Shown here: positions 2-43,142 of the stretch, piece after piece
How the letters are laid out: every line of letters starts with the position of its first letter
Numbering within the stretch: position 1 is the stretch's first letter
NCBI GenBank assembly: GCA_001871815.1
Contig: MNVP01000075.1
Coordinates: forward strand, 1 to 43,142
Source: Candidatus Omnitrophica bacterium CG1_02_40_15
Lineage (GTDB): Bacteria; Omnitrophota; Gorgyraeia; Gorgyraeales; Gorgyraeaceae
Reading direction: 5' to 3'
DNA: 43,142 nucleotides
The notes under the pieces: generated by a model
What the model saw: only the letters and a program-made list of their open reading frames with translations
What the model was told of the DNA's origin: nothing
The model's database searches: none
Translations under genes and position numbers: made by a program

Positions 2-841
2 CAAGGGATAGATTTAAAAGGCCTGGAGATAATAGACAATAAAAAATCAAAAGATTTAGATAAATACGTAGAGCTATATTGTGAAAAGCGTAAGCACAAA
101 AAAGTCAGCCATGAAGATGCATTAAAAATAATCACAGGAAATCCTGTTTTTTACGCCAGCCTTATGGTTAGCGCCGGAGATGCAGATGGATCTGTGGCTG
201 GCGCTTCTATAACTACCCGCGATGTTGCAAAGGCGGCTATCTATTGTATAGGCCCTGCAGAGAATATAAAAACAGTTTCTAGCTCAACGCTTTTAATACT
301 GGGTGATAAGGCTCTCGGGTCTAGCGGTATCTTTATATATGCTGATGCAGGCATCGTGCCTGATCCAACTGCAGACGAGCTGGTAGATATTACAATATCG
401 AGCGCAAGGATGGCAAAGATACTACTGGATGACCAGCCAAAGATTGCGATGTTAAGTTATTCAACTAAAGGCAGCGGCGGCTCTGGTAAAAGTATACAGA
501 AAGTCCAGGAAGCTACAAGGATTGTAAGAGAGAGAGAGCCAGACTTACTTATAGACGGAGAAATACAGGTCGATTGCGCAGTAGTGCCGGAAGTAGCTCA
601 GAGAAAAGACCCTGATTCCAGAATTAAAGGCAGAGCAAATATTTTTATATTCCCGAATTTAGATGCTGGGAATATTTCGTATAAATTAACTCAGCGCCTC
701 GCAAGAGCGCGCGCTATCGGGCCGCTTCTTCAAGGCCTTCAAAAACCAGCCAGCGACCTATCGCGCGGCTGTGATTTTCAGGATATTATAGATGCAGTTG
801 CGATAACAGCTGTCAGGGCACAGGGCGAGGACATTCAGTAG
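2..841 (+). CDS. pta: phosphate acetyltransferase, C-terminal part (5' end outside window)
   Basis: Frame is open from nt 2 (QGIDLKGLEIIDNKKSKDLDKYVELY...). Pta motifs SLMVSAGDADGSVAGA, IAMLSYSTKGSG, FIFPNLDAGNISYKL are present and ackA lies directly downstream. The TAG stop lies inside palindrome A1. Confidence 0.85.
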   Translation, partial: QGIDLKGLEIIDNKKSKDLDKYVELYCEKRKHKKVSHEDALKIITGNPVFYASLMVSAGDADGSVAGASITTRDVAKAAIYCIGPAENIKTVSSSTLLILGDKALGSSGIFIYADAGIVPDPTADELVDITISSARMAKILLDDQPKIAMLSYSTKGSGGSGKSIQKVQEATRIVREREPDLLIDGEIQVDCAVVPEVAQRKDPDSRIKGRANIFIFPNLDAGNISYKLTQRLARARAIGPLLQGLQKPASDLSRGCDFQDIIDAVAITAVRAQGEDIQ

Positions 842-866
842 GGACAGAACATTGTTCTGTCCCTAC
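838..866. repeat. Family A 29-nt palindrome, copy A1
   Basis: GTAGGGACAGAACATTGTTCTGTCCCTAC: 14-nt arms around one central base. It contains the pta stop codon. Confidence 0.9.
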
Positions 867-3689: not shown

Positions 3690-4666
3690 TGGAACAGGCT
3701 GGCATACTTGGATTAGGTTGTTATCTACCAGTCATGAAGCTGACAAATAAAGACATGGAGAAGATGGTCGATACATCAGATGAATGGATAATGACAAGGA
3801 CTGGGATCAAGGAAAGAAGGATTGCTCCAAAGGAATTTGCTGCGAGCGACCTTGGAGTGGAGGCTGCCAGAGCTGCCATTAAAGACTCAGGGTTAAAGCC
3901 TGAAGATATAGATTTGATTATTGTTGCTACAGTAACGGGCGATATGGCATTTCCATCTACCTCATGTATTATACAGGATAAGATAGGCGCTCGTAACTCA
4001 GCCGCATTTGATATAAATGCGGCGTGTTCAGGTTTTATATTCGGTATAATTACTGCGAAACAATTTGTTGATTCAGGGTTTTATAAAAATGTGCTGGTTA
4101 TAGGCGCAGAAAAGATGACCAATCTTGTTGACTGGCAAGATCGGTCTACGTGCGTATTGTTCGGAGACGGAGCAGGCGCATGCGTTGTAGGAAAGAGTAA
4201 AGATAGGCGGATTATCTCTTATTTTATAGGCTGCGATGGTTCAGGCAGTAATCTTTTAAGGCTTCCAGCAGGGGGCTCCAGGATTCCTACAACAGAAGAG
4301 ACTGTTAAGGCTAAGCTTCATTTTTTAAAAATGGAAGGCAACGAGGTATTTAAAATCGCGGTAAAGGTAATGGCAGATGCTGCGAATAAGGCAATTACAA
4401 AAGCAGGGCTTTTATGTAGCGACATAGATTTATTGATACCGCATCAGGCAAATATAAGGATATTAATGGCTGTTGCAAAAAAGATGGGCTTGCCGGAAGA
4501 AAAGATTTTTCTTAATATAGAAAAATACGGCAATATGTCATCGGCTTCAACAGCTGTTGCGCTGGCAGAGGCAGATAAAGAACATAAGATTAAAAAAGGC
4601 GATAATGTCGCGCTTGTTGCGTTTGGAGCAGGATTGACTTACGGGGCTGTTGTGATTAAGTGGTAA
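3686..4666 (+). CDS. fabH: 3-oxoacyl-ACP synthase III
   Basis: TSDEWIMTRTGIKERRIA, active-site AACSGF, HQANIRI, GNMSSAS. ATGA overlap with plsX. Confidence 0.9.
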   Translation: MMEQAGILGLGCYLPVMKLTNKDMEKMVDTSDEWIMTRTGIKERRIAPKEFAASDLGVEAARAAIKDSGLKPEDIDLIIVATVTGDMAFPSTSCIIQDKIGARNSAAFDINAACSGFIFGIITAKQFVDSGFYKNVLVIGAEKMTNLVDWQDRSTCVLFGDGAGACVVGKSKDRRIISYFIGCDGSGSNLLRLPAGGSRIPTTEETVKAKLHFLKMEGNEVFKIAVKVMADAANKAITKAGLLCSDIDLLIPHQANIRILMAVAKKMGLPEEKIFLNIEKYGNMSSASTAVALAEADKEHKIKKGDNVALVAFGAGLTYGAVVIKW

Positions 4667-4672
4667 AGGATG

Positions 4673-4761
4673 GTTCTCGACTGGGCGTGCATGCATAGCC
4701 AGTATGTCCACTCGAACAATATTTATATTCTTCGAGCGAGGCCGAAGGCCGAGTCGAGAAG
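4673..4761. repeat. Family B TCGA-rich composite element, copy B1
   Basis: GTTCTCGACTGGGCG ... CTCGAACAATATTTATATTCTTCGAGCG ... AGTCGAGAAG as nested inverted repeats. Fills the fabH-fabD gap. Confidence 0.85.
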
Positions 4762-4770
4762 GAAATAATT

Positions 4771-5715
4771 ATGAATAAAATATGTTTTATTTTTCCATGC
4801 CAGGGATCGCAGTATGTGGGAATGGGGAAAAAGCTGTATGATAATTCTCCGGAAGCAAAAACTATATTTGACCAAGTAGAAAAAAATTTACCGGGATTAG
4901 ATCTAAAGAAACTTTGTTTTGAAGGCCCGATAGAAAAATTGACACAGACGGCAAACAGCCAAGTCGCGATACTTGTTACGAGCATCGCAGCTTTGCGGAT
5001 ATTAGAGACTGTAGGGACAGCACAATGGGCTGTCCCTACAGTGAAGGCGGGGCTAGTATGCTGCGCAGGGTTGAGTCTTGGGGAATATAGTGCGCTGGTT
5101 GCAAGCGGCGCATTGGAATTTTTAGACGCTGTAAGATTAGTTAGGCGAAGAGGGGAATTAATGGAACAAGCGGCTTTGAATAATCCAGGAACTATGGCGT
5201 CTATACTTGGGATTTCCGCAGAAGATCTGAAAGAAATTTGTAAAGAGACAGGGGCCGAAATAGCAAATCTAAATTGTCCGGGACAAATAGTTATATCAGG
5301 TAAAATTGAATCTGTCCAAAAAGCCATGGCCCTAGCTGAGCAAAAAGGCGCTAAAAAGGCAATTATATTAAATGTAAGCGGGCCTTTTCATTCATCATTT
5401 ATGAAAGAAGCTGCAAAGGAGTTTAAAAAAGAGCTTGGTAAAACAAAATTTTCCAGCCCCATGGTACCTATTGTAAGTAACGTTACAGCTGATTACGAAA
5501 AAACAGTTGATGAGATAAAAGAAAATCTTGTAAAACAATTATACAGCCCTGTGAGATGGGAAGAGTCTATACTAAAAATCAGCCAGGAAGGCTGCGATAC
5601 GTTTTTTGAGATAGGGCCCGGAAAGGTGCTTAAAGGATTATTGCGCAGGATAAATCCGGAATTAAAGGTTTATAATATAGAAACTGTGGAGGATATAAAT
5701 AATCTAACTTTGTAA
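4771..5715 (+). CDS. fabD: malonyl-CoA:ACP transacylase
   Basis: FIFPCQGSQYVGMG, nucleophile elbow GLSLGEYSAL, NCPGQIVISG, SGPFHSSFM, VRWEES. Carries in-frame palindrome A2. Confidence 0.9.
   Translation: MNKICFIFPCQGSQYVGMGKKLYDNSPEAKTIFDQVEKNLPGLDLKKLCFEGPIEKLTQTANSQVAILVTSIAALRILETVGTAQWAVPTVKAGLVCCAGLSLGEYSALVASGALEFLDAVRLVRRRGELMEQAALNNPGTMASILGISAEDLKEICKETGAEIANLNCPGQIVISGKIESVQKAMALAEQKGAKKAIILNVSGPFHSSFMKEAAKEFKKELGKTKFSSPMVPIVSNVTADYEKTVDEIKENLVKQLYSPVRWEESILKISQEGCDTFFEIGPGKVLKGLLRRINPELKVYNIETVEDINNLTL
5011..5039. repeat. Family A palindrome, copy A2 (inside fabD, in frame)
   Basis: GTAGGGACAGCACAATGGGCTGTCCCTAC, translated as VGTAQWAVPT. GTA is codon 81 of fabD. Confidence 0.9.
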
Positions 5716-5722
5716 AAGAATA

Positions 5723-5837
5723 GTTCTCGACTGGGCGCGTATGTATAGCCATAATGTCCGCTCGAACAATATTAGAAGCATCCAATATTCTTCGAGTGAT
5801 AATGATAACATATCATGAAAGCAAAGTCGAGAAGAAC
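5723..5837. repeat. Family B composite element, copy B2
   Basis: Roughly 85 percent identical by eye to B5 over about 110 nt: GTTCTCGACTGGG...TATAGCC...CGCTCGAACAATATTAGAA...CCAATATTCTTCGAG...CATATCATGAAAGCA.AGTCGAGAAG. Confidence 0.9.
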
Positions 5838-5854
5838 TGTAAAGGGGAAATATT

Positions 5855-6604: not shown

Positions 6605-6617
6605 AAATAAAAAGTTA

Positions 6618-6681
6618 GTTAAAAGTGAAAGGTGAAAAGTTAAAGATTTTTACCTTATACTTTAAACTTTACACCTTTAAC
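6618..6681. repeat. Family G heptamer hairpin, copy G2
   Basis: 5' arm GTTAAAA GTGAAAG GTGAAAA GTTAAAG, short loop, then a 3' arm of complementary 7-mers (..ACTTTAA ACTTTAC ACCTTTAAC). Imperfect pairing, about 21 of 28. Confidence 0.7.
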
Positions 6682-7024: not shown

Positions 7025-7075
7025 GCCCCTACCGTTTTGATTCGCTTTGCGAATGCAAAACGAATCAGTAGGGGC
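7025..7075. repeat. Family C 51-nt hairpin, copy C1
   Basis: GCCCCTAC CGTTTTGATTCGC TTT GCGAATGCAAAACG AATCA GTAGGGGC. Its reverse complement is 49/51 identical to C2. Confidence 0.9.
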
Positions 7076-7138
7076 GAATTAATCCCGCCCTTTTAGCAAT
7101 TTTTCTCAGCTTGTTATTCAAAAGGGCGGGATAACTTC
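7076..7138. repeat. Family D hairpin, copy D1
   Basis: GAATTAATCCCGCCCTTTT-(25-nt loop AGCAATTTTTCTCAGCTTGTTATTC)-AAAAGGGCGGGATAACTTCGG. Matches D2. Confidence 0.85.
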
Positions 7139-7179
7139 GGCCAAATAAGTTACGTCGTTTCACTCCGTAACTTATGGCC
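7139..7179. repeat. Family E hairpin, copy E1
   Basis: GGCC AAATAAGTTACG TCGTTTCACTC CGTAACTTAT GGCC. Same stem as E2, and the loop motif TCGTTTCACTC is shared with E3 and F2. Confidence 0.85.
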
Positions 7180-12881: not shown

Positions 12882-14573
12882 ATGCCTGATAAAAAGACAA
12901 GTCTTTTGGGCGAGATATTAATCCAGAAAAAACTGATTACCAAAGAGCAGCTGGAAGTTGGCTTGAATGAGCACAGAAAAACAGGGGAATTTTTAGGCGC
13001 GTCATTAATAAAGCTTGGTTTTATAAAGGAAAATGATTTATATAGCGCGCTTTCCAAGCAGTTAAATATCCCATATATTAAATTAAAAGAGCTTCAAATA
13101 GACGCAAAGATTTTTGAAAAACTTCCTGCCAAATTTACCTGCCACTATAAAGTCATGCCAGTAAAATTAGAAGAAGATACCCTGACTATTGCGACAAGGG
13201 ACCCATTAGATGTGAGGACGCTTGATGATATTAGGCTGTTTTCCGGGTTTAATGTGATTTTAGTTTTGGCAGCTGAATCTGATATATCCGAAGCTATTAG
13301 AAAATATTATGGGCTAGGCGCTGAAACAATAGAAGAGATTATAGATACAAGCGATAGGGACATGGTAATGCCTGAGACAAAAACAGAGACAATAGATGAA
13401 ATGGCAGAGGATGCGTCTATAATTAAATTTGTAAATCAGATCTTGCTTCAGGCGGTTAAGGATAATGCTACAGATATACATTTGGAGCCTTATGAAGGCG
13501 AACTTAAGACTAGATATAGGATAGACGGGGTGCTTTATGACATTCCTGTGCCAGAGGGTATAAAATATTTTCAATCTGCTGTTGTTTCCAGGATAAAGAT
13601 TATGTCTAATCTGGATATTGCAGAGCGGCGGCTTCCTCAAGATGGAAGGGTAAAGATCAGAGTAGGCGCTAATGAAATAGACCTTAGAATATCAATACTG
13701 CCAACCCAATTTGGAGAGAGCGTTGATATCAGAATTTTGAGCGGCAGTATGTTGTATAGTTTAGAAAAATTGGGGCTGCTGCGGCCTGACCTTGATATTT
13801 TAGAAAAACTTATAAAAAAGCCGCATGGCATTATTTTTGTTACAGGGCCTACAGGCAGCGGGAAAAGCACTACTCTTTATGCGTGTTTATCCAAGATAAA
13901 TAATAAAGATAGAAAGATTATTACGATAGAGGACCCTATAGAATATCAGATGAAAGGTATAACCCAGCTTCAAGTTCATCCAAGGATTGGATTGAGTTTT
14001 TCAACAGGCCTTCGTTCTATGCTCAGGCATGACCCTGATATTATGATGGTTGGGGAGGTAAGGGATTTTGAAACAGCCGAGATAACTATAAGAGTTGCGC
14101 TTACAGGGCATCTTGTATTTAGCACTTTACATACTAATGATGCCGCAGGTGGAATTACAAGGCTTCTTGATATGGGTATAGAGCCGTTTCTTGTGGCAAG
14201 TTCTGTAGAATGTTTTATTGCGCAGCGCCTTGTCCGAATTATTTGCCCTGGCTGTAAAATTGAGAAAAAGATAGATAAAAATATATTAGCCGAGTTTGGA
14301 ATAGAAAATAATACAGATAACATATCTGTATATGAAGGCAAGGGTTGCGATTCTTGTAAATTTACAGGGTATAAAGGCCGAACAGCCATATATGAATTCT
14401 TGCTTATGGATGAAGGCATTAGGGATTTAGTTTTAAAACGCGCTTCATCTGATCAAATAAAAAAGAAGGCCTTGGAATTCGGCATGCATACACTTCGCAT
14501 GGATGGCTGGGAAAAGATAAAAAAGGGCTTAACCACTATTAATGAAGTAATAAGGGTAACAGAAGAAGATTGA
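12882..14573 (+). CDS. gspE: type II secretion / type IV pilus assembly ATPase (GspE/PilB family)
   Basis: N-terminal MshEN/T2SSE_N-like domain, Walker A GPTGSGKST, Asp box, Walker B MMVGEVRD, His box, tetracysteine CPGC...CDSC. Confidence 0.9.
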   Translation: MPDKKTSLLGEILIQKKLITKEQLEVGLNEHRKTGEFLGASLIKLGFIKENDLYSALSKQLNIPYIKLKELQIDAKIFEKLPAKFTCHYKVMPVKLEEDTLTIATRDPLDVRTLDDIRLFSGFNVILVLAAESDISEAIRKYYGLGAETIEEIIDTSDRDMVMPETKTETIDEMAEDASIIKFVNQILLQAVKDNATDIHLEPYEGELKTRYRIDGVLYDIPVPEGIKYFQSAVVSRIKIMSNLDIAERRLPQDGRVKIRVGANEIDLRISILPTQFGESVDIRILSGSMLYSLEKLGLLRPDLDILEKLIKKPHGIIFVTGPTGSGKSTTLYACLSKINNKDRKIITIEDPIEYQMKGITQLQVHPRIGLSFSTGLRSMLRHDPDIMMVGEVRDFETAEITIRVALTGHLVFSTLHTNDAAGGITRLLDMGIEPFLVASSVECFIAQRLVRIICPGCKIEKKIDKNILAEFGIENNTDNISVYEGKGCDSCKFTGYKGRTAIYEFLLMDEGIRDLVLKRASSDQIKKKALEFGMHTLRMDGWEKIKKGLTTINEVIRVTEED

Positions 14574-14586
14574 TAGGATACTATAC

Positions 14587-14684
14587 TGTTCGAGCGGACA
14601 GGGTGACTAATTGACAAAGCCCAGTCGAGAACTTCTCGACTGAGCTTACATTTTATGCCAGCTATGTCCGCTCGAAGAATATTT
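14587..14684. repeat. Family B element, copy B3 (head-to-head dimer of half elements)
   Basis: TGTTCGAGCGGACA...GCCCAGTCGAGAAC | TTCTCGACTGAGC...ATGTCCGCTCGAAGAATATT. The left half is an inverted copy of the B 5' module. Confidence 0.8.
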
Positions 14685-15887: not shown

Positions 15888-15979
15888 AGCTGTAAGCGAT
15901 AAGCCGTAAGTTTTAAGCTATAAACAAAAAATAAAATTTCAAGCTTTTCTTACAGCTTAAAGCTTATAACTTACAGCTT
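15888..15979. repeat. Family G heptamer hairpin, copy G3 (empty form)
   Basis: 5' arm GCTGTAA GCGATAA GCCGTAA GTTTTAA GCTATAA, an 18-nt A-rich loop, then 3' arm TTCTTAC AGCTTAA AGCTTAT AACTTAC AGCTTAA. The 3' arm is nearly identical to G4b. Confidence 0.8.
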
Positions 15980-15998
15980 AATTTATGGAGGTTTTAAC

Positions 15999-18256: not shown

Positions 18257-18307
18257 GCCCCCACTGATTCGTTTTGCATTCGCAAAGCGAATCAAAACGG
18301 TGGGGGC
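18257..18307. repeat. Family C 51-nt hairpin, copy C2 (inverted relative to C1)
   Basis: GCCCCCAC TGATT CGTTTTGCATTCGC AAA GCGAATCAAAACG GTGGGGGC. Starts immediately after the gspK TGA. Confidence 0.9.
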
Positions 18308-20201: not shown

Positions 20202-20468
20202 TTGGAAAAGGTATATTTGATAAAAGACTTGGCGAGAATGAGCGGGCAGACAGTTTATACGCTTAAATATTATCTGAATATAGGGCTTATTAAAGAAGTC
20301 GGTAGAAGTCCTGAGACTAGTTTTAGGTATTTTGATGATAGCACTATTGAGAGATTGAAAAAAATACGGGAATTAAGACGGGAGAATAAATCTATAGCTG
20401 AAATAAAAGAATTGTTGGAGTTCTCGACTCCCCGCCAAAGAACCGTTGGCGGATCGCTCGAACAATAA
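20202..20468 (+). CDS. short MerR-family HTH protein
   Basis: YLIKDLARMSGQTVYTLKYYLNIGLI plus RYFDDSTIERLKKIRELR. No effector domain. TTG 20202 start is inferred. The last 16 codons (EFSTPRQRTVGGSLEQ) are encoded by repeat B4. Confidence 0.65.
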   Translation: MEKVYLIKDLARMSGQTVYTLKYYLNIGLIKEVGRSPETSFRYFDDSTIERLKKIRELRRENKSIAEIKELLEFSTPRQRTVGGSLEQ

Positions 20469-20507: not shown

Positions 20508-20537
20508 TAAACTCCGTAAGCCTAGAAGAAATTGCAT

Positions 20538-25122: not shown

Positions 25123-25127
25123 AAGTC

Positions 25128-25191: not shown

Positions 25192-25195
25192 CACA

Positions 25196-27492: not shown

Positions 27493-28698
27493 ATGTCAAT
27501 CAAAGTCATCAATGAAAAATGCGTTGGTTGTAAATTATGCGTCAAGGCCTGCCCATTCAACGCAATAGAGCTTGTTAATAAAAAAGCAGTCATAGACCTT
27601 GATAAGTGCACATTATGCGGGGCGTGTATAGAATCCTGCAAGTTTGACGCTATCGTGATTGTAGGGGGCGGTCGCGACCGCCCCCTACACCAGAAATTTG
27701 ATGAATATAAAGATGTGTGGGTATTCTGCGAACAGAAAAAAGGCGTTGTGCAGAGTGTTGCATATGAACTTTTGGGCAAGGCTAGAGAGCTCGCGGATAC
27801 ACTTGGGAATGAATTATGCGGAGTTTTATTAGGCGAAGATATGAAAGAGGAAGCGCAGAAGATTATTCATAGAGGCGCTAACAAGGTATATCTTGTGGAT
27901 TCCCCTGCGTTAAAACATTATCAGGATGAGCCATATTCAAAGGTGTTAATTCAATTGATAAAGGAGTATAAGCCTGAAATAGTGCTTTGCGGAGCTTCTT
28001 CAATAGGCAGGTCATTGATATCGCGGGTTGCAATAGGCATTCATGCGGGCCTTACAGCAGATTGCACAGGCCTTGATATAGATAAAAAAGAAAGGCTCCT
28101 ATTGCAAACCAGGCCTGCATTCGGCGGAAATATTATGGCCACTATTATCTGCCCTAATCACAGGCCTCAGATGTCAACTGTAAGGCACAAGGTAATGAAA
28201 GAAGCTGCCGAAAATAAACATCATAAAGGAAAGATCATAGAAAAAAATTACGGCAGTAATATTTATTTTTCGAGAACAAGGCTTATTGATATTGTGGAAG
28301 AGATAGAAGAGACAGTCAATTTAACAGAGGCAAACGTGATTGTTTCCGGCGGAAGGGGCATGCAGTCCCCAGAGAATTTTAAACTTATTGAAGGCCTGGC
28401 AAAGGCTCTGGGCGGCGCTGTAGGAGCATCGCGCGCCGCAGTTGACAGCGGCTGGAAAACTTATTCGCACCAGGTTGGCCAGACAGGAAAAACAGTGTGC
28501 CCGAAGATTTACATAGCCTGCGGCATCTCCGGCCAGATCCAGCATCTTGTGGGCATGCAGTCTTCAAAGATAATAGTGGCGATAAATAAAGACCCTTACG
28601 CGCCCATATTCAGCGTGGCGACCTATGGGATAGTTGGGGATTTATTTGAAGTATTGCCTGAATTGACGAGAAGATTTAAAGAAATATTGAAAAAATAG
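27493..28698 (+). CDS. etfA: electron transfer flavoprotein alpha subunit with N-terminal 2x[4Fe-4S] ferredoxin domain
   Basis: CVGCKLCVKACP and CTLCGACIESCK motifs, then VSGGRGM, GASRAAVDSGW, QVGQTGKTVCPKIYIACGISGQIQH. Confidence 0.9.
   Translation: MSIKVINEKCVGCKLCVKACPFNAIELVNKKAVIDLDKCTLCGACIESCKFDAIVIVGGGRDRPLHQKFDEYKDVWVFCEQKKGVVQSVAYELLGKARELADTLGNELCGVLLGEDMKEEAQKIIHRGANKVYLVDSPALKHYQDEPYSKVLIQLIKEYKPEIVLCGASSIGRSLISRVAIGIHAGLTADCTGLDIDKKERLLLQTRPAFGGNIMATIICPNHRPQMSTVRHKVMKEAAENKHHKGKIIEKNYGSNIYFSRTRLIDIVEEIEETVNLTEANVIVSGGRGMQSPENFKLIEGLAKALGGAVGASRAAVDSGWKTYSHQVGQTGKTVCPKIYIACGISGQIQHLVGMQSSKIIVAINKDPYAPIFSVATYGIVGDLFEVLPELTRRFKEILKK
27661..27688. repeat. Family A-like perfect 28-nt palindrome, copy A6 (inside etfA, in frame)
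   Basis: GTAGGGGGCGGTCGCGACCGCCCCCTAC, translated as VGGGRDRPL, in the linker between the ferredoxin and Etf domains. Confidence 0.85.
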
Positions 28699-28736: not shown

Positions 28737-29093
28737 ATGGCTTACACATTTAAGAATATAAAAGTTTGGGATAAAGCTCATAAGTTAGTTTTGGAAATAT
28801 ATAAAGCGACAAGAAATTTCCCAACGGAAGAAAAATATGGTTTGATAGCGCAACTTAGGAGATCGGCAGCTCCTATACCTACGAATATAGTAGAAGGTTA
28901 TAAAAGAAAAAGTGATAAAGATTTTTTACATTTTCTTAATATAGCCGATACATCTTTAGAAGAAACAAAATATCATTTACTTTTGAGTTACGATTTGAAT
29001 TATTTGAAAAAGAATGAATATGAAAGATTATTAGATTTAATGGACGAAGTTGGAAAGATGCTTTTTGGCTTCCAACAAAAGCTTAAAGCTTAA
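28737..29093 (+). CDS. four-helix-bundle protein (23S rRNA intervening-sequence protein / Avd-like family)
   Basis: KAHKLVLEIYKATRNFPTEEKYGLIAQLRRSAAPIPTNIVEGYKR...FLHFLNIADTSLEETKYHLLLS, recognised as the TIGR02436-type family. Confidence 0.8.
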   Translation: MAYTFKNIKVWDKAHKLVLEIYKATRNFPTEEKYGLIAQLRRSAAPIPTNIVEGYKRKSDKDFLHFLNIADTSLEETKYHLLLSYDLNYLKKNEYERLLDLMDEVGKMLFGFQQKLKA

Positions 29094-29111
29094 AGCTTAT
29101 AACTTAAAGCT
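29080..29111. repeat. Family G heptamer arm, copy G4b (3' arm)
   Basis: AGCTTAA AGCTTAA AGCTTAT AACTTAA AGCT. Complementary to G4a at 27 of 32 positions. Contains the stop of the four-helix-bundle gene and ends 7 nt before the smc ATG. Confidence 0.8.
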
Positions 29112-29118
29112 GAAAAAC

Positions 29119-32100
29119 ATGTATTTCAAATCCTTAGAATTATTCGGTTTCAAATCATTCGCTGATAAGACAAGGTTGGATTTTGAGCCTGGCATTACTG
29201 CTATTGTGGGGCCCAATGGCTGCGGAAAATCTAATATTGCCGACAGCATAAAGTGGGTACTCGGAGAACAATCTGCAAAGGTCTTGCGCGGCGGCAAAAT
29301 GGAAGACGTTATATTCAACGGCACTGACGGCAAGGAACCTGTGAGTTTCGCGGAAGTTTCCCTCACGCTTTCCAATCAGGATAGGGCGCTTGCAATAGAA
29401 TACGACGAAGTTACTGTCACCAGGCGCCTCTATCGCTCAGGAGAGAGCGAGTATCTTTTAAATAAAACTCCGGTCCGGCTTAAGGATATAAATGAGCTTT
29501 TCATGGGCACTGGCATAGGCACAAGCGCTTATTCTATTATTGAACAGGGCAAGATAGACCAGGTCTTGAGCTCGAAGCCAGAGGAAAGGCGTGAGGTCTT
29601 TGAAGAGGCGAGCGGCATTACAAAATACAAGGCAAAAAAGAAAGAGGCATTGCATAAACTGGAAGATACAGAACAAAATCTATTAAGGATAAATGATATC
29701 ATAGTAGAAGTAAAGCGCCAGATCAATTCAATAGAACGCCAGGCGAAGAAGGCAGAGCGCTATAAAGAGCGCTACGAAGAATTGAAGTCAATTGAATTGA
29801 AGCTCTCGAGAATAGACCTTGAGATATTGAGAAGCAAGAACTTGAATTCCGAAAGGGATACAAGCGAGTTAAATCAGAAAGAAGCAGAGCTTAATTTAGA
29901 ATTAAATAGCTTGTCCGAGGACCTGTCATTATTAAACAAGGATAGCTCCCATGTGGAAAATAAAAGAGTGAACCTGAAATCCAGAATAGTAGAACTTAAT
30001 TCTGAAATCTCAAAAGCCAGCAATAAGATATCTATGGATAAAGAAAGGGTGGACGAGCTTACAAAGCGCCGCTCAGGCCTTGAGGCTGAGATAAAAAAAA
30101 GCGAAGACATACTTATATCTCAAGAAAAGGAGATAGCTAATCTCAAGGAAAAGATATCTACGCTGGAAAAGGAAGATAGCGCGAGGTTCAGCAAGGTAAC
30201 AGAAAAAGAAAAAAGATTCGAAGAGATATCAAAGGCAATAAAAACAAGCGAAACAACATTGTCCAATTCGAAGGCAAATATCATAGATATTGCTTCAAGA
30301 CAGGCGAAGCTGAGAAACCAGGTGGCGAAGATATCCACTACTATTTCAACCCACGACTCAAGGCTCAAGAGGCTGGAATCAGAAAAATCAACTGTCTTAG
30401 AGGAAAAAAATAACCTGCAAGCTAAATTAAACGAAATCCTGGCAGAAATAACAGCAATTGAAAAAGAAGCAGCCAGCCTTAAACTAGAAAGAGATTCTGT
30501 ATCTGGTTCCGTATCAGCTATCCGAAGCCATATAAACTCGCTTACAGAAGAATCCAAAAAAATAGAGGCGCTCCTGGCGTCCAATAAATCCAAATTAGAA
30601 TTTTTGGAAGAGGCAAGGCTTAAATACGAAGGGTTTTCCGCAGGCGTAAAGGCAATACTTGGAAGCCAGTCAAGGATAGACGGCGTCAGGGATTGCCTTG
30701 CAAATCTGTTAACAGTCAAAAAAGGCTATGAGGCTGCAATAGAAACAGCAATGTCTGAGTATCTGCAAAGCATAGTAGTTGATACTATGGAATCTGTGGA
30801 TAATGCTATAGCATATCTTAAAGAACATTCATACGGCAAGGCCTCATTTATATATCCAGGGTATTTTAACGTAGGGACAGCACAATGTGCTGTCCCTACC
30901 GAGCAGATGGCGGTTTCCGAAGTCGAAAATTATAACGACAGCCGCATCCTTGGCAAGGCAGCTGATTTTGTAAATGCAGGAGATTCTTATAAAAATATCT
31001 TGAGGTATATATTGAAAGATGTTTTTATAGTAAATGACCTTAAGGACGCAAGGGCTCTTTTGGATAATACCAAGGGGCCTGCGAGGTGCAGGTTTATTAC
31101 TTTGTCAGGTGAGGCGGCCGAGAATGGGTTCATAACAGGCGGGAGCTCTAAAAAGGAAGAGCTTGGCCTGATAAATAGAGACGCCAGGATAAATGAGATC
31201 CGTCAAATGGTTAGTGAACTGGAAGGCCATTCGCGAAAACTTGAAGAAGAAAGGTTAGAGAAAGAAAAAGAAGAGAACGAATTGAAAACTAAATTTGAAG
31301 CGCTTACAAACGTAATTAACGAAAAAGATATACTATTTGCTAATGCCTCTACCAGCAGATCCAATATAGAAGAAAATATGAAAGGCCTGGGGGATGAGAT
31401 ATCGCTTGTGAACCTTGAGATAGATGAAGTGAATTCTGAAATCCTGATTCTGAAACAGGAAGAAGATGCTTCTCTTAAGACGCTGTTAGAGCTTGAGAAT
31501 GAAACCAAGATTAATGAAGAAAGGATACGCAGCAGCGAAGCCCTTATAACAGAATGCGCAAAAGAAAGAGAACAGCTTCTTGTAGAGATCGCGGAGGCAA
31601 GGACCGAGCTGGGGTCGCTCGAAAGCAAAAAGGAAGGCCTGTCGAGCACGTTGAATATACTGGAATCATCTTTGCGTGATGCCAGAAATAACGTAGAGTC
31701 CAGAAAGCTGGAAATAACGAGCTCTATTAAAAAGGGAGATGCGCTAATCGTAGAGATAAAAGAATTTGAAAAAAACATAACTGTCCTGTCGGAAGAAGGT
31801 TCCGGGAGGAATAAAGAATTGAGCGAGGTAGAGGCCGTATATTCCGAGATAACAGAAAAAACAGCGTCTTACGAAACTAAATCCAAAGAGATAGAAAACC
31901 AGATAAATAGTATAAGGTCAAAGATGCATTCTGTGGACTTACAGAAGGCGGAGGTGAATTACAGCATAGAAAACCTGACTCAACGCATAAGGGATGTTTA
32001 CAAAACTGAGCTTTTGGAATTCGAGCTGCCAGAGGATTGGCAGGTTTTAGATAAAGCTGCCCTGAAAAATAATGTAGAGGAAATGCGCAATCACTTGGAT

Positions 32101-32745
32101 TCAATGGGCGCGGTAAATCTGGTAGCTATAGATGAGAATAAAGAGCTTCAGGATAGGTTTATATTTTTGACAACCCAGAGAGATGACTTATTAAAGGCAA
32201 AAGACAGCCTGCTGGAGGCAATTAATAAAATAAATAAAACAACAAAAGAGCTCTTTATGGAGACATTCAAGAATATTCAAGTGGAATTCAGGAACTTCTT
32301 CAAAATGCTTTTCGGAGGAGGAGATGGGGAACTCATGCTCCTGGATGATGACAATGTGCTTGAGTGCGGGATTGAAATAGTCGCGAGGCCTCCCGGGAAA
32401 AGGCTTCAAAATGTTTCGCTTCTTTCAGGGGGAGAAAAAGCCCTTACCGCAGTAGCTCTTATATTCGCAATATTTAAAGTAAAGCCAAGCCCATTCTGTG
32501 TTCTGGATGAAATAGACGCGCCTCTTGACGAATCAAATGTTGACAGATTTTCAAGAAGCCTCGATATGTTTACAAATACATCTCAATTCATTGTTGTAAC
32601 CCACAATAAAAAGACCATTGATAAGGCTGATGTGATGTATGGCATTACCATGCAGCAGTCTGGCGTATCAAAGGTCGTCTCAGTCAAATTTTCAGATTCA
32701 AAGAAACAGGAAGCGGTTGAACAGCAAGTGGAGCCGAAGGTTTAA
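29119..32745 (+). CDS. smc: chromosome partition protein SMC
   Basis: MYFKSLELFGFKSFADKT, Walker A GPNGCGKSN, long coiled coils, hinge, LSGGEKALTAVALIFA, Walker B FCVLDEIDAPLD. Start ATG 29119. Carries in-frame palindrome A3 in the hinge region. Confidence 0.9.
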   Translation: MYFKSLELFGFKSFADKTRLDFEPGITAIVGPNGCGKSNIADSIKWVLGEQSAKVLRGGKMEDVIFNGTDGKEPVSFAEVSLTLSNQDRALAIEYDEVTVTRRLYRSGESEYLLNKTPVRLKDINELFMGTGIGTSAYSIIEQGKIDQVLSSKPEERREVFEEASGITKYKAKKKEALHKLEDTEQNLLRINDIIVEVKRQINSIERQAKKAERYKERYEELKSIELKLSRIDLEILRSKNLNSERDTSELNQKEAELNLELNSLSEDLSLLNKDSSHVENKRVNLKSRIVELNSEISKASNKISMDKERVDELTKRRSGLEAEIKKSEDILISQEKEIANLKEKISTLEKEDSARFSKVTEKEKRFEEISKAIKTSETTLSNSKANIIDIASRQAKLRNQVAKISTTISTHDSRLKRLESEKSTVLEEKNNLQAKLNEILAEITAIEKEAASLKLERDSVSGSVSAIRSHINSLTEESKKIEALLASNKSKLEFLEEARLKYEGFSAGVKAILGSQSRIDGVRDCLANLLTVKKGYEAAIETAMSEYLQSIVVDTMESVDNAIAYLKEHSYGKASFIYPGYFNVGTAQCAVPTEQMAVSEVENYNDSRILGKAADFVNAGDSYKNILRYILKDVFIVNDLKDARALLDNTKGPARCRFITLSGEAAENGFITGGSSKKEELGLINRDARINEIRQMVSELEGHSRKLEEERLEKEKEENELKTKFEALTNVINEKDILFANASTSRSNIEENMKGLGDEISLVNLEIDEVNSEILILKQEEDASLKTLLELENETKINEERIRSSEALITECAKEREQLLVEIAEARTELGSLESKKEGLSSTLNILESSLRDARNNVESRKLEITSSIKKGDALIVEIKEFEKNITVLSEEGSGRNKELSEVEAVYSEITEKTASYETKSKEIENQINSIRSKMHSVDLQKAEVNYSIENLTQRIRDVYKTELLEFELPEDWQVLDKAALKNNVEEMRNHLDSMGAVNLVAIDENKELQDRFIFLTTQRDDLLKAKDSLLEAINKINKTTKELFMETFKNIQVEFRNFFKMLFGGGDGELMLLDDDNVLECGIEIVARPPGKRLQNVSLLSGGEKALTAVALIFAIFKVKPSPFCVLDEIDAPLDESNVDRFSRSLDMFTNTSQFIVVTHNKKTIDKADVMYGITMQQSGVSKVVSVKFSDSKKQEAVEQQVEPKV
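30871..30899. repeat. Family A palindrome, copy A3 (inside smc, in frame)
   Basis: GTAGGGACAGCACAATGTGCTGTCCCTAC, translated as VGTAQCAVPT. GTA is codon 585 counted from ATG 29119. Confidence 0.9.
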
Positions 32746-35496: not shown

Positions 35497-35525
35497 GTAG
35501 GGCCAGCACATTGTGCTGGCCCTAC
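35497..35525. repeat. Family A palindrome, copy A4
   Basis: GTAGGGCCAGCACATTGTGCTGGCCCTAC, starting 2 nt after the ribBA stop. Confidence 0.9.
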
Positions 35526-36013: not shown

Positions 36014-36042
36014 GTAGGGACAGGACAATGTCCTGTCCCTAC
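36014..36042. repeat. Family A palindrome, copy A5
   Basis: GTAGGGACAGGACAATGTCCTGTCCCTAC, between ribH and nusB. Confidence 0.9.
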
Positions 36043-37492: not shown

Positions 37493-38617
37493 ATGAAGAG
37501 ACATGAATTTTTTATGAGAAAGGTTTTGGAGCTGGCTGAAAAAGGTAAGGGAACTACCAGCCCTAACCCTATGGTAGGCGCGTTGGTCGTAAAGAATGGG
37601 AAAATTATAGTAAGCGCTTATCATAGACGGCCAGGAGGCCTGCACGCAGAGGCTATCGCGCTAAAAAGAGCTGGCCAGAAGGCAAAAGGCGCGACGCTTT
37701 ATGTGAATCTTGAGCCATGCGCCCATTTAGGAAGAACGCCTCCATGCTCAAAGGCAATTATAAAAAGCGGTATAAAAGAGGTTTATTGCTCGATGATTGA
37801 CCCGAATCCTTTGAATAATGGAAAAGGCAAAAAGGAATTAGAGAAAAATGGCGTTAACGTTAGAGTGGGGATTTTAGCTGAAGAAGCAGCAAAGTTAAAT
37901 GAAGTTTTTATAAAATATGTTACAAAGAAGATGCCTTTTGTGACAATAAAGGTTGCCGAGTCTCTGGACGGCAAGATAGCTACAAGGACAATGGATTCTA
38001 AATGGATTAGTTCAGAGGCCTCCAGGGATTATTCGCACAGTCTGCGCAGCGAGATGGATGCTGTGCTTGTGGGCGTGAATACAATAATGAGAGATAACCC
38101 GATCCTGACTTCAAGAAGGAATAAGTCACCTATAAAGATAGTGTTAGATTCAAATCTAAGGGTTTCTGAAAACGCAAATATCTTTTCAAAAAAGTCTCCA
38201 GCCTTGAATATAGTAGCGATTTTAAAGAAATCATTAAAGGCCCCGCATATATTGAAAAAAGTAGAGAGATTTAATAAAAGAGGGATTCTCATTGTAGCGT
38301 GCCCTGGCAAGAATAACAGGATTGACCTGGAATGGCTTTTAAAAGAGCTGGCAGAACTTGAGATCAGCCGCTTATTAGTAGAAGGCGGAGGCGATACTAT
38401 AGCAGGATTTTTAGAGCAAGGATTTGTGGACAGAGTTTTATTTTTTATAGCTCCGAAGATCATAGGCGGCAGGAATGCAGTGACTTCTGTTGAAGGTAGA
38501 GGCGTAGGTAAGGTAAGCTATGCTATAAAATTGAAAAATGTGAAAGTTGAAATGATCGGCGGCGAAGATATTTTAATCAGCGGTAAGCCCAACAACTTGA
38601 CAAATCAACAATGTTGA
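37493..38617 (+). CDS. ribD: bifunctional riboflavin biosynthesis deaminase/reductase
   Basis: HAEAIAL plus EPCAHLGRTPPC deaminase zinc motifs. Reductase part KVAESLDGKIA...VEGGG. The last 9 codons and the stop lie within a 47-nt palindrome. Confidence 0.9.
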   Translation: MKRHEFFMRKVLELAEKGKGTTSPNPMVGALVVKNGKIIVSAYHRRPGGLHAEAIALKRAGQKAKGATLYVNLEPCAHLGRTPPCSKAIIKSGIKEVYCSMIDPNPLNNGKGKKELEKNGVNVRVGILAEEAAKLNEVFIKYVTKKMPFVTIKVAESLDGKIATRTMDSKWISSEASRDYSHSLRSEMDAVLVGVNTIMRDNPILTSRRNKSPIKIVLDSNLRVSENANIFSKKSPALNIVAILKKSLKAPHILKKVERFNKRGILIVACPGKNNRIDLEWLLKELAELEISRLLVEGGGDTIAGFLEQGFVDRVLFFIAPKIIGGRNAVTSVEGRGVGKVSYAIKLKNVKVEMIGGEDILISGKPNNLTNQQC

Positions 38618-38647: not shown

Positions 38648-39277
38648 ATGTTTACAGGGATAATTGAAGAAATAGGCATTGTAAAGGAAATAAATAAGAC
38701 TAGCACAGGCGTTTTATTGAAGATAAAAACAGAAAAAGTGTATTCCGACGCTAAAATAGGCGACAGTATCTGCGTAAACGGTTCATGCTTGAGCGTAGTT
38801 GAAATCAGCGGGAATATTTTAAGTTTTGATGTAATACCTGAAACGCTTAAAAGGACTGCTCTGGCCCACTTAAAGATTAATTATTCTGTGAACATGGAAA
38901 GAAGCATTAAGGCTGATTCCAGGATAGGCGGCCATTTTCTCACAGGCCATGTGGATTATAAAGGCAGTATTCTTGATATATCCAGAAAATCAGAAGGCGT
39001 TGGCTTTAAGTTGCCGCTTCCAAAAGAATATTCCAATTTTGTGGTTGAAAAAGGCTCTGTAGGGCTTGATGGCGTCAGCCTTACAGTGGCAAGCGTGACA
39101 AAAGAATATTTTACAGTATATCTTATACCGCATACACTTAAAAGCACCACGTTTTCTACAAAGAAAAAAGGCGATTTTATAAATATTGAGACAGATATAA
39201 TAGGAAAATATGTAGCAAAAGATAAAGCAAAAGCCAGTGATTTCAAAGATATCCTGAGAGAATACGGATATATGTAG
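38648..39277 (+). CDS. ribE: riboflavin synthase alpha chain
   Basis: MFTGIIEEIG and two lumazine-binding repeats (GDSICVNGSCLSV; GSVGLDGVSLTV). Confidence 0.9.
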   Translation: MFTGIIEEIGIVKEINKTSTGVLLKIKTEKVYSDAKIGDSICVNGSCLSVVEISGNILSFDVIPETLKRTALAHLKINYSVNMERSIKADSRIGGHFLTGHVDYKGSILDISRKSEGVGFKLPLPKEYSNFVVEKGSVGLDGVSLTVASVTKEYFTVYLIPHTLKSTTFSTKKKGDFINIETDIIGKYVAKDKAKASDFKDILREYGYM

Positions 39278-40894: not shown

Positions 40895-41940
40895 TAATAA
40901 TAGTTAATTTAGTAGGTTTTTTTATTATAGCTATCCTGATATTATTTTTTAACAAAAAGGCTAGAGAGTCTGCGTCAAAGGAGAGCGAAGAAAAGATAAA
41001 TACTCTTCGCAGCGAATGGAGCGATACGCTTTCTAAAAATACAGAGCTTATTTTAAAACAGCTTAATGAAAGCGCCAAGGTCCAGCAGATGGTAAGCTCC
41101 AGTATGGGCGAGAGGTTTGATAACGCGGCAAAGGTTTTCGGCGATGTGAAAAAAAGCCTTGGTTCCCTGGATGAAAAAACCCAGCAGATTTACGAGGTTG
41201 GCAAAGATATAGCGAGTTTACAGGAAATACTCAAAGCCCCTAAAATGAGAGGCGGGCTCGGAGAGCTGTTTCTGGAATCGCTTCTTGAGCAGATAATGCC
41301 TCATAAGGATTTTTATGAGCTTCAGCATTGTTTTAAGACAGGCGAGAGGGTGGATGCTGCCATCAAGATAGGGACCAGGCTTGTGCCTGTGGATTCAAAA
41401 TTTCCGCTGGAGAGTTTTAAGAGGTTTGTAGACGCGCAAAATGACGATGATAAAAAGCGCGCAAAAAGGGAGTTTACAAAAGCAGTTAAAGACCATATAG
41501 ATTCTATCGCAGATAAATATATACTTCCGGATGAAGGCACGTATGACTTTGCGCTGATGTATATACCTGCTGAGAATGTCTATTACGAAACAATCATAAA
41601 GGATGAAGTTTTTGGAGAAGAAAAGTCCATATTCAGCCACGCCATATCCAAAAAAGTAATACCTGTATCGCCGAATAGTTTTTATGCGTACCTGCAGGTG
41701 ATTATCCTTGGCATGAAAGGGTTGAAGGTAGAAGAAAAGGCGCAAGAAGTGATAAAGATGCTCATTACTTTGAAAGGTTCTCTTGGGAAATTCACAGAGG
41801 ATTTCGAAGTAATAGGGACTCATATCGACAATATAAAATCAAGCTATGAAAGGGCAGTAAAAAGTTTGGATAAATTCGAAGATAAACTGCTCTCGGCAGA
41901 TTCGCTGGAAGAAAAAAATAAAATTGAGAACAAAGGATAG
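40891..41940 (+). CDS. rmuC: DNA recombination protein RmuC
   Basis: N-terminal TM, coiled coil, RGGLGELFLESLL, VDAAIKIGTRLVPVDSKFP, MYIPAENVYYE. ATGA overlap with the upstream stop. Confidence 0.85.
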   Translation: MIIIVNLVGFFIIAILILFFNKKARESASKESEEKINTLRSEWSDTLSKNTELILKQLNESAKVQQMVSSSMGERFDNAAKVFGDVKKSLGSLDEKTQQIYEVGKDIASLQEILKAPKMRGGLGELFLESLLEQIMPHKDFYELQHCFKTGERVDAAIKIGTRLVPVDSKFPLESFKRFVDAQNDDDKKRAKREFTKAVKDHIDSIADKYILPDEGTYDFALMYIPAENVYYETIIKDEVFGEEKSIFSHAISKKVIPVSPNSFYAYLQVIILGMKGLKVEEKAQEVIKMLITLKGSLGKFTEDFEVIGTHIDNIKSSYERAVKSLDKFEDKLLSADSLEEKNKIENKG

Positions 41941-43142
41941 AGGAGGGTTTAAAACCCTTCTCTACAAAGGATTTGGTACGGGGCGTAGCGCAGTTGGCTA
42001 GCGCGCTTGCTTCGGGAGCAAGAGGTCGCTGGTTCGAATCCAGCCGCCCCGACCACATCGGATTTGACGCATTTTCTGAGGAAAAAGAGGGATTTTTAAA
42101 ATCTTTTTGGGCGAAAAATTCTTTATCGTAAGTGCTTATGTATTCGAGAGTTAAATCAAATGGCTTTTTGAAATCTAAAATCACTTTTTTATCCAGCAGG
42201 CGGCGGTTCGTTCCAATTTTTTCCATAAAAATTTTTATTTCATAAAAATTTTGCGACGAAGCAAGTTTTTCGGCGTGGTGAGCAGTTTTTATCCACTCCC
42301 GCAATGGTTCGATCCAAAGATTACCCTTTCGCCCAAAATCTGCCTTTTTCTGCATAAACTCTGCTTTAGACCTTACAATATCATCTTTCTTAGACAGGTA
42401 AATCTCTTTATCAATGTCGCCATCAAGAAAGGCATTCACTAACTTATCAAGCTTTGCGTCTATTTCTTTAATCTTTATTTGCAGATTTTGGGCGAAAGTT
42501 TGCGAAGACTGAGCAGTATCTTTTTCCCATATATCTACTTGAGCTAGCATCTTTTCTGTCCAGTCTTCGCAAAGGGCGACTTTTGAAATAGCTTGCTTTA
42601 ATTGAGCAATAACCAAGTCTTCTCTTAGATATCTCTGACTACAGGGGCCAAGCCGTTTAGTGCAGCGGTAGTATATATAAGTACCGCCATTTCCATGAGC
42701 ATACTGAGCAGTTATTGCTGCGCCACACTCGCCACATCTTAAAAGCCCAACGAATGGAAAGTTATGACCTTTTTTATTCTTTCTCGGCTTGGCCCTATCT
42801 TTCAGAACTCTCTGAACAGCTTCAAAAGTCGCTCGGGAAACTATCGGCTCGTATTTACCTTCATAAGCTTCGCCATGATAGTCTATCACGCCTATATAAG
42901 CTGAGTTAGTTAGAGTACCTTGAAGCGTAGATTTACAGATCTTCGTTCCATTCCTGCTCACCACGCCGAAAAAACTCAGACGCTCACCCAAACTCGCTAA
43001 AGTATGCTTTCCAGCGGCAAACTCTTCGAAAACTTTCTTTATTATTTTTGCTTTTACCGGGTCTGGTTCGATGTTTCTGGTCTTGGGGTTATTCACATAA
43101 CCAAGAGGAGCTAAACTAAGCCATTCACCGCGTCTGAGTTTT
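41792..43142 (-). CDS. large serine recombinase, C-terminal two thirds (catalytic domain beyond the window); 3' end reads through the tRNA
   Basis: Frame is open to the window edge (KLRRGEWLSLAPLGYVNNPKT... = start of the recombinase domain). Zinc ribbon LRCGECGAAITAQ...YYRCTKR and a coiled coil. There is no stop before the tRNA, and WSGRLDSNQRPLAPEASALANCATPR is the antisense translation of tRNA-Pro. Confidence 0.8.
   Translation of the reverse strand, partial: KLRRGEWLSLAPLGYVNNPKTRNIEPDPVKAKIIKKVFEEFAAGKHTLASLGERLSFFGVVSRNGTKICKSTLQGTLTNSAYIGVIDYHGEAYEGKYEPIVSRATFEAVQRVLKDRAKPRKNKKGHNFPFVGLLRCGECGAAITAQYAHGNGGTYIYYRCTKRLGPCSQRYLREDLVIAQLKQAISKVALCEDWTEKMLAQVDIWEKDTAQSSQTFAQNLQIKIKEIDAKLDKLVNAFLDGDIDKEIYLSKKDDIVRSKAEFMQKKADFGRKGNLWIEPLREWIKTAHHAEKLASSQNFYEIKIFMEKIGTNRRLLDKKVILDFKKPFDLTLEYISTYDKEFFAQKDFKNPSFSSENASNPMWSGRLDSNQRPLAPEASALANCATPRTKSFVEKGFKPSSILCSQFYFFLPANLPRAVYLRIYPNFLLPFHSLILYCRYESLLLRNPL
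41979..42055 (+). tRNA. tRNA-Pro (anticodon CGG), CCA encoded
   Basis: Acceptor CGGGGCG/CGCCCCG, D arm GCGC-AGTTGGCTA-GCGC, anticodon arm CTTGC-TTCGGGA-GCAAG, variable AGGTC, T arm GCTGG-TTCGAAT-CCAGC, discriminator A, CCA. Confidence 0.9.

Follow-up and report, generated by a model that had tools for sequence, protein, structure and literature searches.

Repetitive extragenic palindromes (REPs) are short stem-loop repeats that carry the tetranucleotide GTAG and are linked to REP-associated tyrosine transposases (RAYTs), and they have been described in Escherichia coli, Pseudomonas and Stenotrophomonas, among others (PMC3733652, PMC3116915, PMC3479197). GTAG- and CGTC-tagged REP superfamilies have been defined, and the GTAG ends often supply TAG stop codons (Di Nocera et al. 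2013; PMC3733652). REPs inside open reading frames (ORFs) were also reported in several species, most of them in Opitutus terrae and others in Thauera, Xanthomonas and Stenotrophomonas, and the authors suggested that such intragenic REPs fall in flexible linkers or loops (PMC3733652). The present analysis concerns a 43,142-nt contig of an Omnitrophota bacterium of groundwater (hereafter the window), in which a 29-nt GTAG...CTAC palindrome lies in frame within fabD, the gene for malonyl-CoA:ACP transacylase. Omnitrophota belongs to the same PVC superphylum as Opitutus terrae. The fabD palindrome is a GTAG-type REP that a RAYT probably moved and that is probably tolerated in a loop of the enzyme. 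Intragenic GTAG REPs have been known since 2013, and what is new here is the phylum, the REP family and the host genes; repeated hits on the FabD loop and a REP built into the reading frame of RAYT genes were less expected.

The fabD copy, GTAGGGACAGCACAATGGGCTGTCCCTAC, has perfect 11-bp arms around a 7-nt centre, and at this site the symmetry extends by three more bases on each side (ACT...AGT) to give 35 nt at 5008-5042, for which an RNA hairpin of -25.7 kcal/mol is predicted (z = -8 against shuffles). Codon 81 is the GTA at 5011, and codons 81-90 read the palindrome as VGTAQWAVPT; relative to the perfect form, a single inner-stem mismatch changes TGT (Cys) to TGG (Trp). Sequence, frame, codon and peptide thus bear out the initial annotation, which had placed the palindrome in frame in fabD just before the nucleophile elbow. 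The mirrored antisense peptide that it mentioned, VGTAHCAVPT, is likewise encoded by an ORF at 4656-5327, as a mechanical consequence of the palindromic DNA. The host ORF matched the Pfam family Acyl_transf_1 (PF00698) at 7.3e-36 and solved FabD structures at E = 4e-68. Its best homologues are named Candidatus Omnitrophota, and across 59 of these (alignment A1) the catalytic Ser102 and His207 and the malonyl-carboxylate Arg127 do not vary. The predicted tryptic peptide across the insert is ILETVGTAQWAVPTVK. The elbow itself (5071-5085, codons 101-105) reads GLSLG, the usual form being GHSLG, and this Leu is invariant in 59/59 of the aligned Omnitrophota sequences; the FabD of the window also has PCQGSQ where the others have PGQGSQ.

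The palindrome is absent from the closest FabD orthologues, which carry the short loop ALGSEPKPVCCAG in place of ILETVGTAQWAVPTVKAGLVCCAG in the window. These empty-site orthologues are P0003/L116 (86% identical by tblastn and 89% in alignment A1), L119 and L120. The indel relative to the nearest of them comprises 11 residues together with flanking substitutions; therefore, the extra segment predicted by the initial annotation is present, while the clean 10-residue indel that it expected is not seen in FabD, and a clean gap is found in smc instead. The shorter segment that the initial annotation gave for FabD proteins, by about 8-10 residues, is borne out by alignments to solved FabDs, which have 6, 12, 9 and 9 gap positions exactly at the palindrome segment. 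In alignment A1, the loop ahead of the invariant AGLSLGE elbow varies widely in length. An AlphaFold (AF2) model built from the 59-sequence alignment reached a mean predicted local distance difference test (pLDDT) of 88.4 and a predicted TM-score (pTM) of 0.88, and a Foldseek comparison with solved FabDs gave TM-scores of 0.90-0.92 and root-mean-square deviations of 1.6-2.1 A. The insert lies between the helix 60-83 and the strand 95-100 that leads to Ser102, and residues 83-90, within the insert, form the sole segment of the model with pLDDT below 50. As judged from this model, FabD with the insert is predicted to keep its normal fold and to hold the insert in a disordered loop, in line with the loop insertion proposed earlier.

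Six GTAG...CTAC palindromes are present in the window, three after stop codons and three in frame inside genes (Table 1). With up to three mismatches allowed, the pattern matched five sites, compared with none in 100 dinucleotide-preserving shuffles, and the sixth copy, a 28-nt variant, came from a scan for GTAG-headed perfect hairpins; this copy was apparently missing from the initial list of the family. All six begin with GTAG and finish with CTAC, and the stem differences among them are compensatory (A/T, C/G and G/C pairs). Their perfect arms of 11-14 bp form hairpins predicted at -21 to -26 kcal/mol (z from -6.6 to -8.0). The window copies are all singletons at least 517 nt apart, and the doublet organisation of REPINs (paired, inverted REPs) was not found in the window. 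The fabD, smc and etfA-like ORFs are intact and in frame despite the palindromes.

Table 1. Location and context of fabD and the palindromes of the window, with the palindromes found at the FabD loop of the window and its relatives
Feature	Sequence	Position	Strand	Context
fabD		4771..5715	+	plsX-fabH-fabD-fabG-acpP-fabF cluster; between fabH and fabG-acpP-fabF
fabD copy	GTAGGGACAGCACAATGGGCTGTCCCTAC	5011..5039		in frame, VGTAQWAVPT
Extragenic copy	GTAGGGACAGAACATTGTTCTGTCCCTAC	838..866		TAG at 839-841 is the stop of pta (164..841); 17 nt before ackA start (884)
28-nt variant, 30 nt with T/A flanks	GTAGGGGGCGGTCGCGACCGCCCCCTAC	27661..27688		in frame, VGGGRDRPLH, EtfA/CarE-like gene (27493..28698)
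Perfect copy	GTAGGGACAGCACAATGTGCTGTCCCTAC	30871..30899		in frame, VGTAQCAVPT, hinge domain of smc (29050..32745)
Extragenic copy	GTAGGGCCAGCACATTGTGCTGGCCCTAC	35497..35525		starts 1 nt past ribBA stop; 16 nt before ribH start
Extragenic copy	GTAGGGACAGGACAATGTCCTGTCCCTAC	36014..36042		starts 7 nt past ribH stop; 14 nt before nusB start
FabD loop palindrome, window	inner sequence CACAATGGG			
FabD loop palindrome, L126	inner sequence CACAATGTG			
FabD loop palindrome, L127	inner sequence AACAATGTT			
FabD loop palindrome, L118	inner form GTAGGGGACGG...CCGTCCCCTAC			
FabD loop palindrome, L132	inner form GTAGGGGAGGG...CCCTCCCCTAC			
FabD loop palindrome, L128	inner form GTAGGGAACGG...CCGTTCCCTAC			
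FabD loop palindrome, L131	28-nt GTAGGGACAGGTCGCGACCTGTCCCTAC			

In the smc hinge, the copy corresponds to a clean gap of nine alignment columns at VGTAQCAVP in 19/19 aligned relatives from a representative library, and the solved smc hinge 5H69 also requires gaps at the VGTAQCAVPT site; a single search of limited size with the 291-aa smc hinge fragment returned no homologue at E <= 1e-20. In the EtfA/CarE-like protein, the ferredoxin domain (1-55) and the ETF domain (75-251) are joined by a linker that holds the copy, and since this linker is only three residues longer than that of CarE (6FAH), the copy is no more than a candidate insertion there. The extragenic copies begin 0, 1 and 7 nt past the stops of pta, ribBA and ribH, and each lies 14-17 nt ahead of the next start. 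By analogy with other REPs just past stop codons, these copies probably act on mRNA stability or translation, as Liang, Rudd and Deutscher reportedly observed in 2015 that E. coli REPs just after stop codons affect translation and mRNA decay. No Rfam family matched any of the palindromes, and this search returned only a flavin mononucleotide (FMN) riboswitch and a tRNA in the window. A CRISPR repeat, an intrinsic terminator and an operator site were ruled out as candidates, given the lack of regular spacing and of a T-run, the coding positions and the high dispersed copy number. A MITE (miniature transposable element with inverted repeats), characterized by a length of 70-300 bp, terminal inverted repeats and target-site duplication, was also rejected, the palindrome being a 29-nt single hairpin with no flanking direct repeats.

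The same family extends far beyond this contig. An exact scan of a 596-Gb collection, with one genome per species, for the pattern GTAGGGACAG-N9-CTGTCCCTAC (20 specified bases) found the outer stem GTAGGGACAG...CTGTCCCTAC at no fewer than 115 loci, compared with about 0.5 expected by chance. Among the matches listed, the hosts were Omnitrophota, Patescibacteria, Chloroflexi, Zixibacteria, Ignavibacteriota, Leptospiraceae, Gammaproteobacteria, Bacteroidetes and Clostridia. Because the exact palindrome is also present in the closed chromosomes OY970208 and OZ253489, this spread across phyla is not due to mis-binning. The nine central bases are themselves palindromic (inner 4+4 nt complementary) in 112 of 136 copies and fall into at least ten subtypes. 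The flanks have preferred bases: T precedes 55% of the 136 copies (position -1), and A follows 58% of them (position +1). In the fetched loci, 133/133 copies begin with GTAG and finish with CTAC, a sample skewed to perfect copies because the loci were fetched by exact match.

Long ORFs contain 32 of the copies, of which 26 are read as VGT..VPT and 6 as RDR..CPY; since the third phase contains TAG, no coding copy is possible in it. Pfam-confirmed genes with an in-frame copy encode an Eco57I-type methylase, a saccharopine dehydrogenase-like protein, an ABC ATPase, a GT2 protein and an O-antigen ligase, and genes for a P-type ATPase and a GT9 protein hold two copies each. The Omnitrophota metagenome-assembled genome JAUYEC01 carries many copies of the palindrome, including doublets of two subtypes about 50 nt apart (loci L012, L040 and L050). 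Among viral contigs, only one contains the exact palindrome (IMG/VR locus L133, 9954-9982, AACATTGTT subtype), with a minus-strand ORF on each side of it; phages seem not to be a main vehicle of the palindrome.

Clustering of the ORFs near the matches gave one recurrent family, with the HUH motif IMPNHVHGI and the tyrosine region WQRSFYDHIIR...NP. This family scored above the cut-off of Pfam Y1_Tnp in 4/5 sequences, and its best NCBIfam match was REP_Tyr_transpos, with E down to 6e-19. In a sequence search of the PDB, E. coli TnpA-REP (4ER8) was the only match, and a weak one (E = 0.41); the assignment to the RAYT family therefore rests on Pfam and NCBIfam. More than 1000 RAYT-like homologues were found; JGI names several of them 'REP element-mobilizing transposase RayT', and some are of Omnitrophota origin. 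At eight loci, the HUH motif and the tyrosine region of the Y1_Tnp gene enclose the exact palindrome, which is in frame, and RAYT-like genes with an internal palindrome occur in several phyla (L020, L032, L035, L047, L052, L070, L090, L100, L103, L129 and L130). The decapeptide VGxxxxxxPT is present at that position in 93 of 114 aligned RAYT-like homologues (alignment A2), and its residues 3 and 8 show the covariation expected from palindromic DNA (N-F 60, T-V 25, E/D-S 4). The homologue P0154 has no such segment, and several others have two or three copies. No flanking palindrome copies were found within 1.5-10 kb of the RAYT-like genes; for instance, the Omnitrophota contigs L129 and L130 have a RAYT-like gene with an internal palindrome and no other copy within 10 kb. 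The passages on RAYTs matched in a literature search describe REPs flanking RAYT genes and none inside them, and the search returned nothing relevant linking RAYTs with Omnitrophota or Patescibacteria.

The arrangement in these genes also allows a more far-reaching and tentative proposal, which we regard as less likely than not: the REP family might be a self-contained hairpin transposon whose master copy is part of the reading frame of its own RAYT gene, at a position flanked by the HUH motif and the catalytic tyrosine. Transposase and substrate might then travel together between phyla, and in some lineages the hairpin might burst into REP populations in spacers and protein loops, returning to sites like the FabD loop, while the perfect arms and the numerous compensatory subtypes might be kept by arm-to-arm correction in the extruded hairpin. 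Such joint travel would account for an outer stem, GTAGGGACAG, that stays the same from Patescibacteria through Omnitrophota and Chloroflexi to Proteobacteria.

Compared with described elements, the fabD palindrome is most similar to GTAG REPs and REPINs. It is a stable stem-loop of 29 nt, within the range of about 20-40 nt for REPs; it has the terminal GT[AG]G, here inside the stem; and its many dispersed copies lie mostly just downstream of ORFs in operons, near the 3' ends of the upstream genes, with three copies past stop codons in the window; REPs are typically placed where neighbouring ORFs are co-directional or convergent. Use of TAG as a stop codon, subfamilies with compensatory stem changes and the link to a Y1/HUH transposase of the RAYT type are further shared features. 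Unlike in classical REPs, GTAG lies within the stem and the whole 29 nt form a perfect palindrome, so that both strands carry GTAG and the element is without orientation. In addition, the stem measures 13-14 bp, compared with the usual 6-9 bp, the window copies are singletons and not the doublets of REPINs, the related RAYT genes hold the repeat inside the reading frame and not on their flanks, and one outer stem is found across many phyla, which differs from known GTAG REPs. Like the intragenic REPs of Opitutus terrae and other species, the coding copies lie wholly within ORFs for known proteins, occur singly or several per gene and are read as short peptides. In contrast to the intragenic REPs described previously, half of the window copies (3/6) are intragenic and one orthologous loop was hit by seven palindromes; the published table of intragenic REPs lists no VGT....VPT peptide family and no fabD, smc, etfA or transposase hosts (PMC3733652). 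A literature search with the palindrome sequence as a string gave only unrelated primer matches.

The initial annotation had compared the fabD palindrome with Rickettsia palindromic elements (RPEs), which Ogata et al. in 2000 and 2002 are said to have found in frame in genes for essential proteins, apparently at fold-compatible sites. Elements of the RPE-1 type are about 100-150 bp long; to our knowledge, RPEs are restricted to Rickettsia, and we know of no transposase dedicated to them. The likeness lies in a palindromic repeat read in frame in genes for essential proteins, with intact ORFs and with fold-compatible sites, namely the predicted disordered loop of FabD, the smc hinge loop and the interdomain linker of the etfA-like gene. 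It holds as an analogy only, because the present element is 29 nt long, GTAG-tagged, linked to RAYTs and found in many phyla, whereas RPE-4/6 have been assigned to CGTC REPs (PMC3733652). The GTAG ends, the size and the RAYT link make the palindrome a GTAG-type REP and not an RPE. The RAYT-like proteins also share the HUH motif and the C-terminal tyrosine helix with TnpA Y1 of IS200/IS605, which moves by single-strand 'peel and paste', and recognition of the hairpin on single-stranded DNA would be the expected mode by analogy. Unlike IS200/IS605, the palindrome has no coding capacity, consists of one hairpin in place of two different subterminal hairpins and is non-autonomous.

The palindrome itself, its family of copies, its absence from the closest orthologues, its position in a predicted disordered loop and the RAYT link in other genomes make it likely that a RAYT-moved GTAG-type REP landed in the FabD loop and is tolerated there, most likely as a neutral or slightly deleterious passenger. 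The 29-nt hairpin would have landed between the long helix (60-83) and the strand to the nucleophile Ser102. Such hairpins would be moved in trans on single-stranded DNA by a RAYT (HUH/Y1) encoded elsewhere in the genome, similarly to the action of IS200/IS605 and of E. coli TnpA-REP on their own hairpins. A copy inside a gene would be expected to survive only if a multiple of three bases is added (here 29 + 1 = 30), if it is not read in the TAG-containing phase and if the protein site tolerates ten extra small, Gly/Pro-flanked residues, all of which appear to hold for the fabD copy. The enzyme would most likely be left functional, and the perfect arms might be kept through recent copying or arm-to-arm correction.

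The FabD loop was probably struck more than once. The DNA of relatives revealed seven distinct GTAG palindromes at this loop, including that of the window (Table 1). The 28-nt copy of L131 is one base out of phase (CRDRSRPVPT) and lies at a slightly different place in the loop, and at least this copy is therefore an independent event. The window, L126, L118 and L132 share the 3' flank (A/G)(G/C)TGAAGGC(G/A)G(G/A)GC but hold three subtypes, and so some change or replacement in place is also likely in these four lineages. The shared flank might alternatively reflect one ancient insertion in an Omnitrophota ancestor, after which the palindromes diverged in place and the empty sites arose by secondary precise losses; L118 and L132 differ by one compensatory pair, and the common outer stem of the REP subtypes would permit conversion between copies. 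A single ancient event appears doubtful, however, in view of the phase and position of the L131 variant, which also lacks the flank, and of L127 and L128, which are without it as well. A neighbour-joining tree of FabD, which is poorly resolved and does not decide the history, scatters the insert types and groups the window with empty-site sequences. A mixed history, with several insertions and some change in place, fits best.

Other small repeats were observed at the same FabD loop in L117, L121, L122 and L124. The relatives carry heptamer tandems (CTATGCY x4, GGGTNAA x4 and TAGGGCA x3) and another hairpin, CCCGAAC...GTTCGGG, and protein-level loops such as LKAEG...AFSLEP likewise back-translate to palindromes.

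Several observations weigh against a RAYT-moved and merely tolerated REP in fabD. The copies show no target-site duplication and no defined insertion footprint, and a tblastn search of the window found no RAYT gene in it. The putative RAYT link rests on the sequences of other genomes with the same outer stem, and the REP_Tyr_transpos matches score 51-68 bits, below the model cut-off of 80. No contig that skips 5011-5039 was seen in four groundwater runs, as judged from assembled contigs only, which drop rare variants. Moreover, the palindromes of the window and L126 are 28/29 identical, while identity over the remainder of the gene is 79.7% (P = 0.012), and all palindromes at the orthologous FabD site are perfect or nearly perfect hairpins, which could mean upkeep beyond mere tolerance.

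These last two observations would be accounted for if the fabD hairpin were kept by selection for a role at the DNA or RNA level, for example as a binding site for a RAYT or another protein, a translational pause, or an element of mRNA processing or stability within the fab operon. Six of the seven FabD loop palindromes are perfect, with one mismatch in that of the window, L118 and L132 differ by a compensatory pair beside an identical 3' flank, the hairpins of the family are strong, and the three extragenic copies lie directly past stops inside operons, where E. coli REPs are said to affect translation and mRNA decay. Nevertheless, a selected role seems distinctly unlikely, as the closest orthologues do without the palindrome, the host genes and positions are mutually unrelated, and perfect arms may also arise from recent insertion or arm-to-arm correction, which needs no benefit to the host. 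The only RNA run found, a lake metatranscriptome, holds 4% of the words and is uninformative.

That the ten residues form an ancestral or locally evolved FabD loop, palindromic by chance and without any insertion, is very improbable. The loop does vary in length among Omnitrophota FabDs, and some orthologues have a segment of equal length, which the initial annotation would have taken as a sign of an ancestral loop if its sequence were unrelated and non-palindromic; the equal-length segments are indeed present, but they are other palindromes of the same family. Furthermore, the 29-mer occurs at four other sites of the window with 1 to 3 differences, where none is expected, including one in the unrelated coding DNA of smc, and both the abundance of the 20-specified-base version in other genomes and the empty sites of the closest orthologues oppose this reading. 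That the palindrome is an artefact of sequencing or of assembly, for instance a chimeric join or a hairpin resembling an adapter, has a practically negligible probability: palindromes can cause misassembly, and the word depth in the source metagenome is about 1000 at the palindrome and about 10 at fabD (approximately 100x), but a 1277-nt contig spanning fabD and the palindrome was recovered from two independent groundwater metagenome runs on different samples and differs there at 0 and 1 positions, orthologous copies at fabD exist in independent assemblies from other sites, the reading frame is preserved, and the closed chromosomes hold the palindrome too.

In annotation, segments of ten residues with the form VGT....VPT or RDR....CPY, in proteins of uncultured groups such as Omnitrophota and Patescibacteria, are to be read as repeat-derived inserts; they are not lineage-specific functional motifs, and they inflate the apparent divergence of loops. 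Seven palindromes and empty sites in one FabD loop amount to a natural insertion-tolerance experiment in an essential enzyme. The customary description of REPs is that of extragenic elements; in this window, half of the copies are coding, and related RAYT genes contain the hairpin. If confirmed, the hairpin inside RAYT genes would provide a simple system for how a transposase and a minimal substrate stay linked and spread.

The window also contains other repeats. One of them, MITE-like and about 105-140 nt long, has GTTCTCGACTGGGC...AGTCGAGAAG as its inverted ends and CTCGAACAATATT/ATATTCTTCGAG as its inner palindrome; it is found at 4665-4770, 5715-5854 and 27359-27492, with partial copies at 36539-36637, 14555-14690 (minus strand) and 20440-20540 (minus strand). 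It lies on both sides of fabD, stops just ahead of the ribosome-binding site of the next gene and has a word depth of 600-900 in the source metagenomes, compared with about 10 for fabD. A 51-nt hairpin repeat, GCCCCTACCGTTTTGATTCGCTTTGCGAATGCAAAACGAATCAGTAGGGGC, with CTAC/GTAG near its ends, occurs at 7025-7075 and, inverted, at 18247-18307, and AAAAGGGCGGGAT / ATCCCGCCCTTTT hairpins at 7072-7142 and 25125-25194 are found upstream of two genes, fabF and the one at 25262. Heptamer-like AAGTTTA / AAGCTTA tracts (2643-2683, 6610-6648, 15902-15981, 28690-28732 and 29082-29116) are intergenic and directly upstream of the starts of plsX, acpP, the genes at 15999 and 28737, and smc. A 47-nt perfect palindrome with 23-nt arms and a 1-nt centre, CCCAACAACTTGACAAATCAACA-T-TGTTGATTTGTCAAGTTGTTGGG, is located at 38588-38634, where the ORFs 37493..38617 and 38648..39277 meet. 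Two of the REPs lie in intergenic spacers of the rib operon, and the FMN riboswitch (33969-34091, 94.8 bits) is located upstream of this operon. The tRNA, a tRNA-Pro(CGG) at 41979-42055 on the plus strand, falls inside a long ORF of the minus strand (41792..43096), and this ORF is therefore unlikely to be a genuine gene along its entire length.

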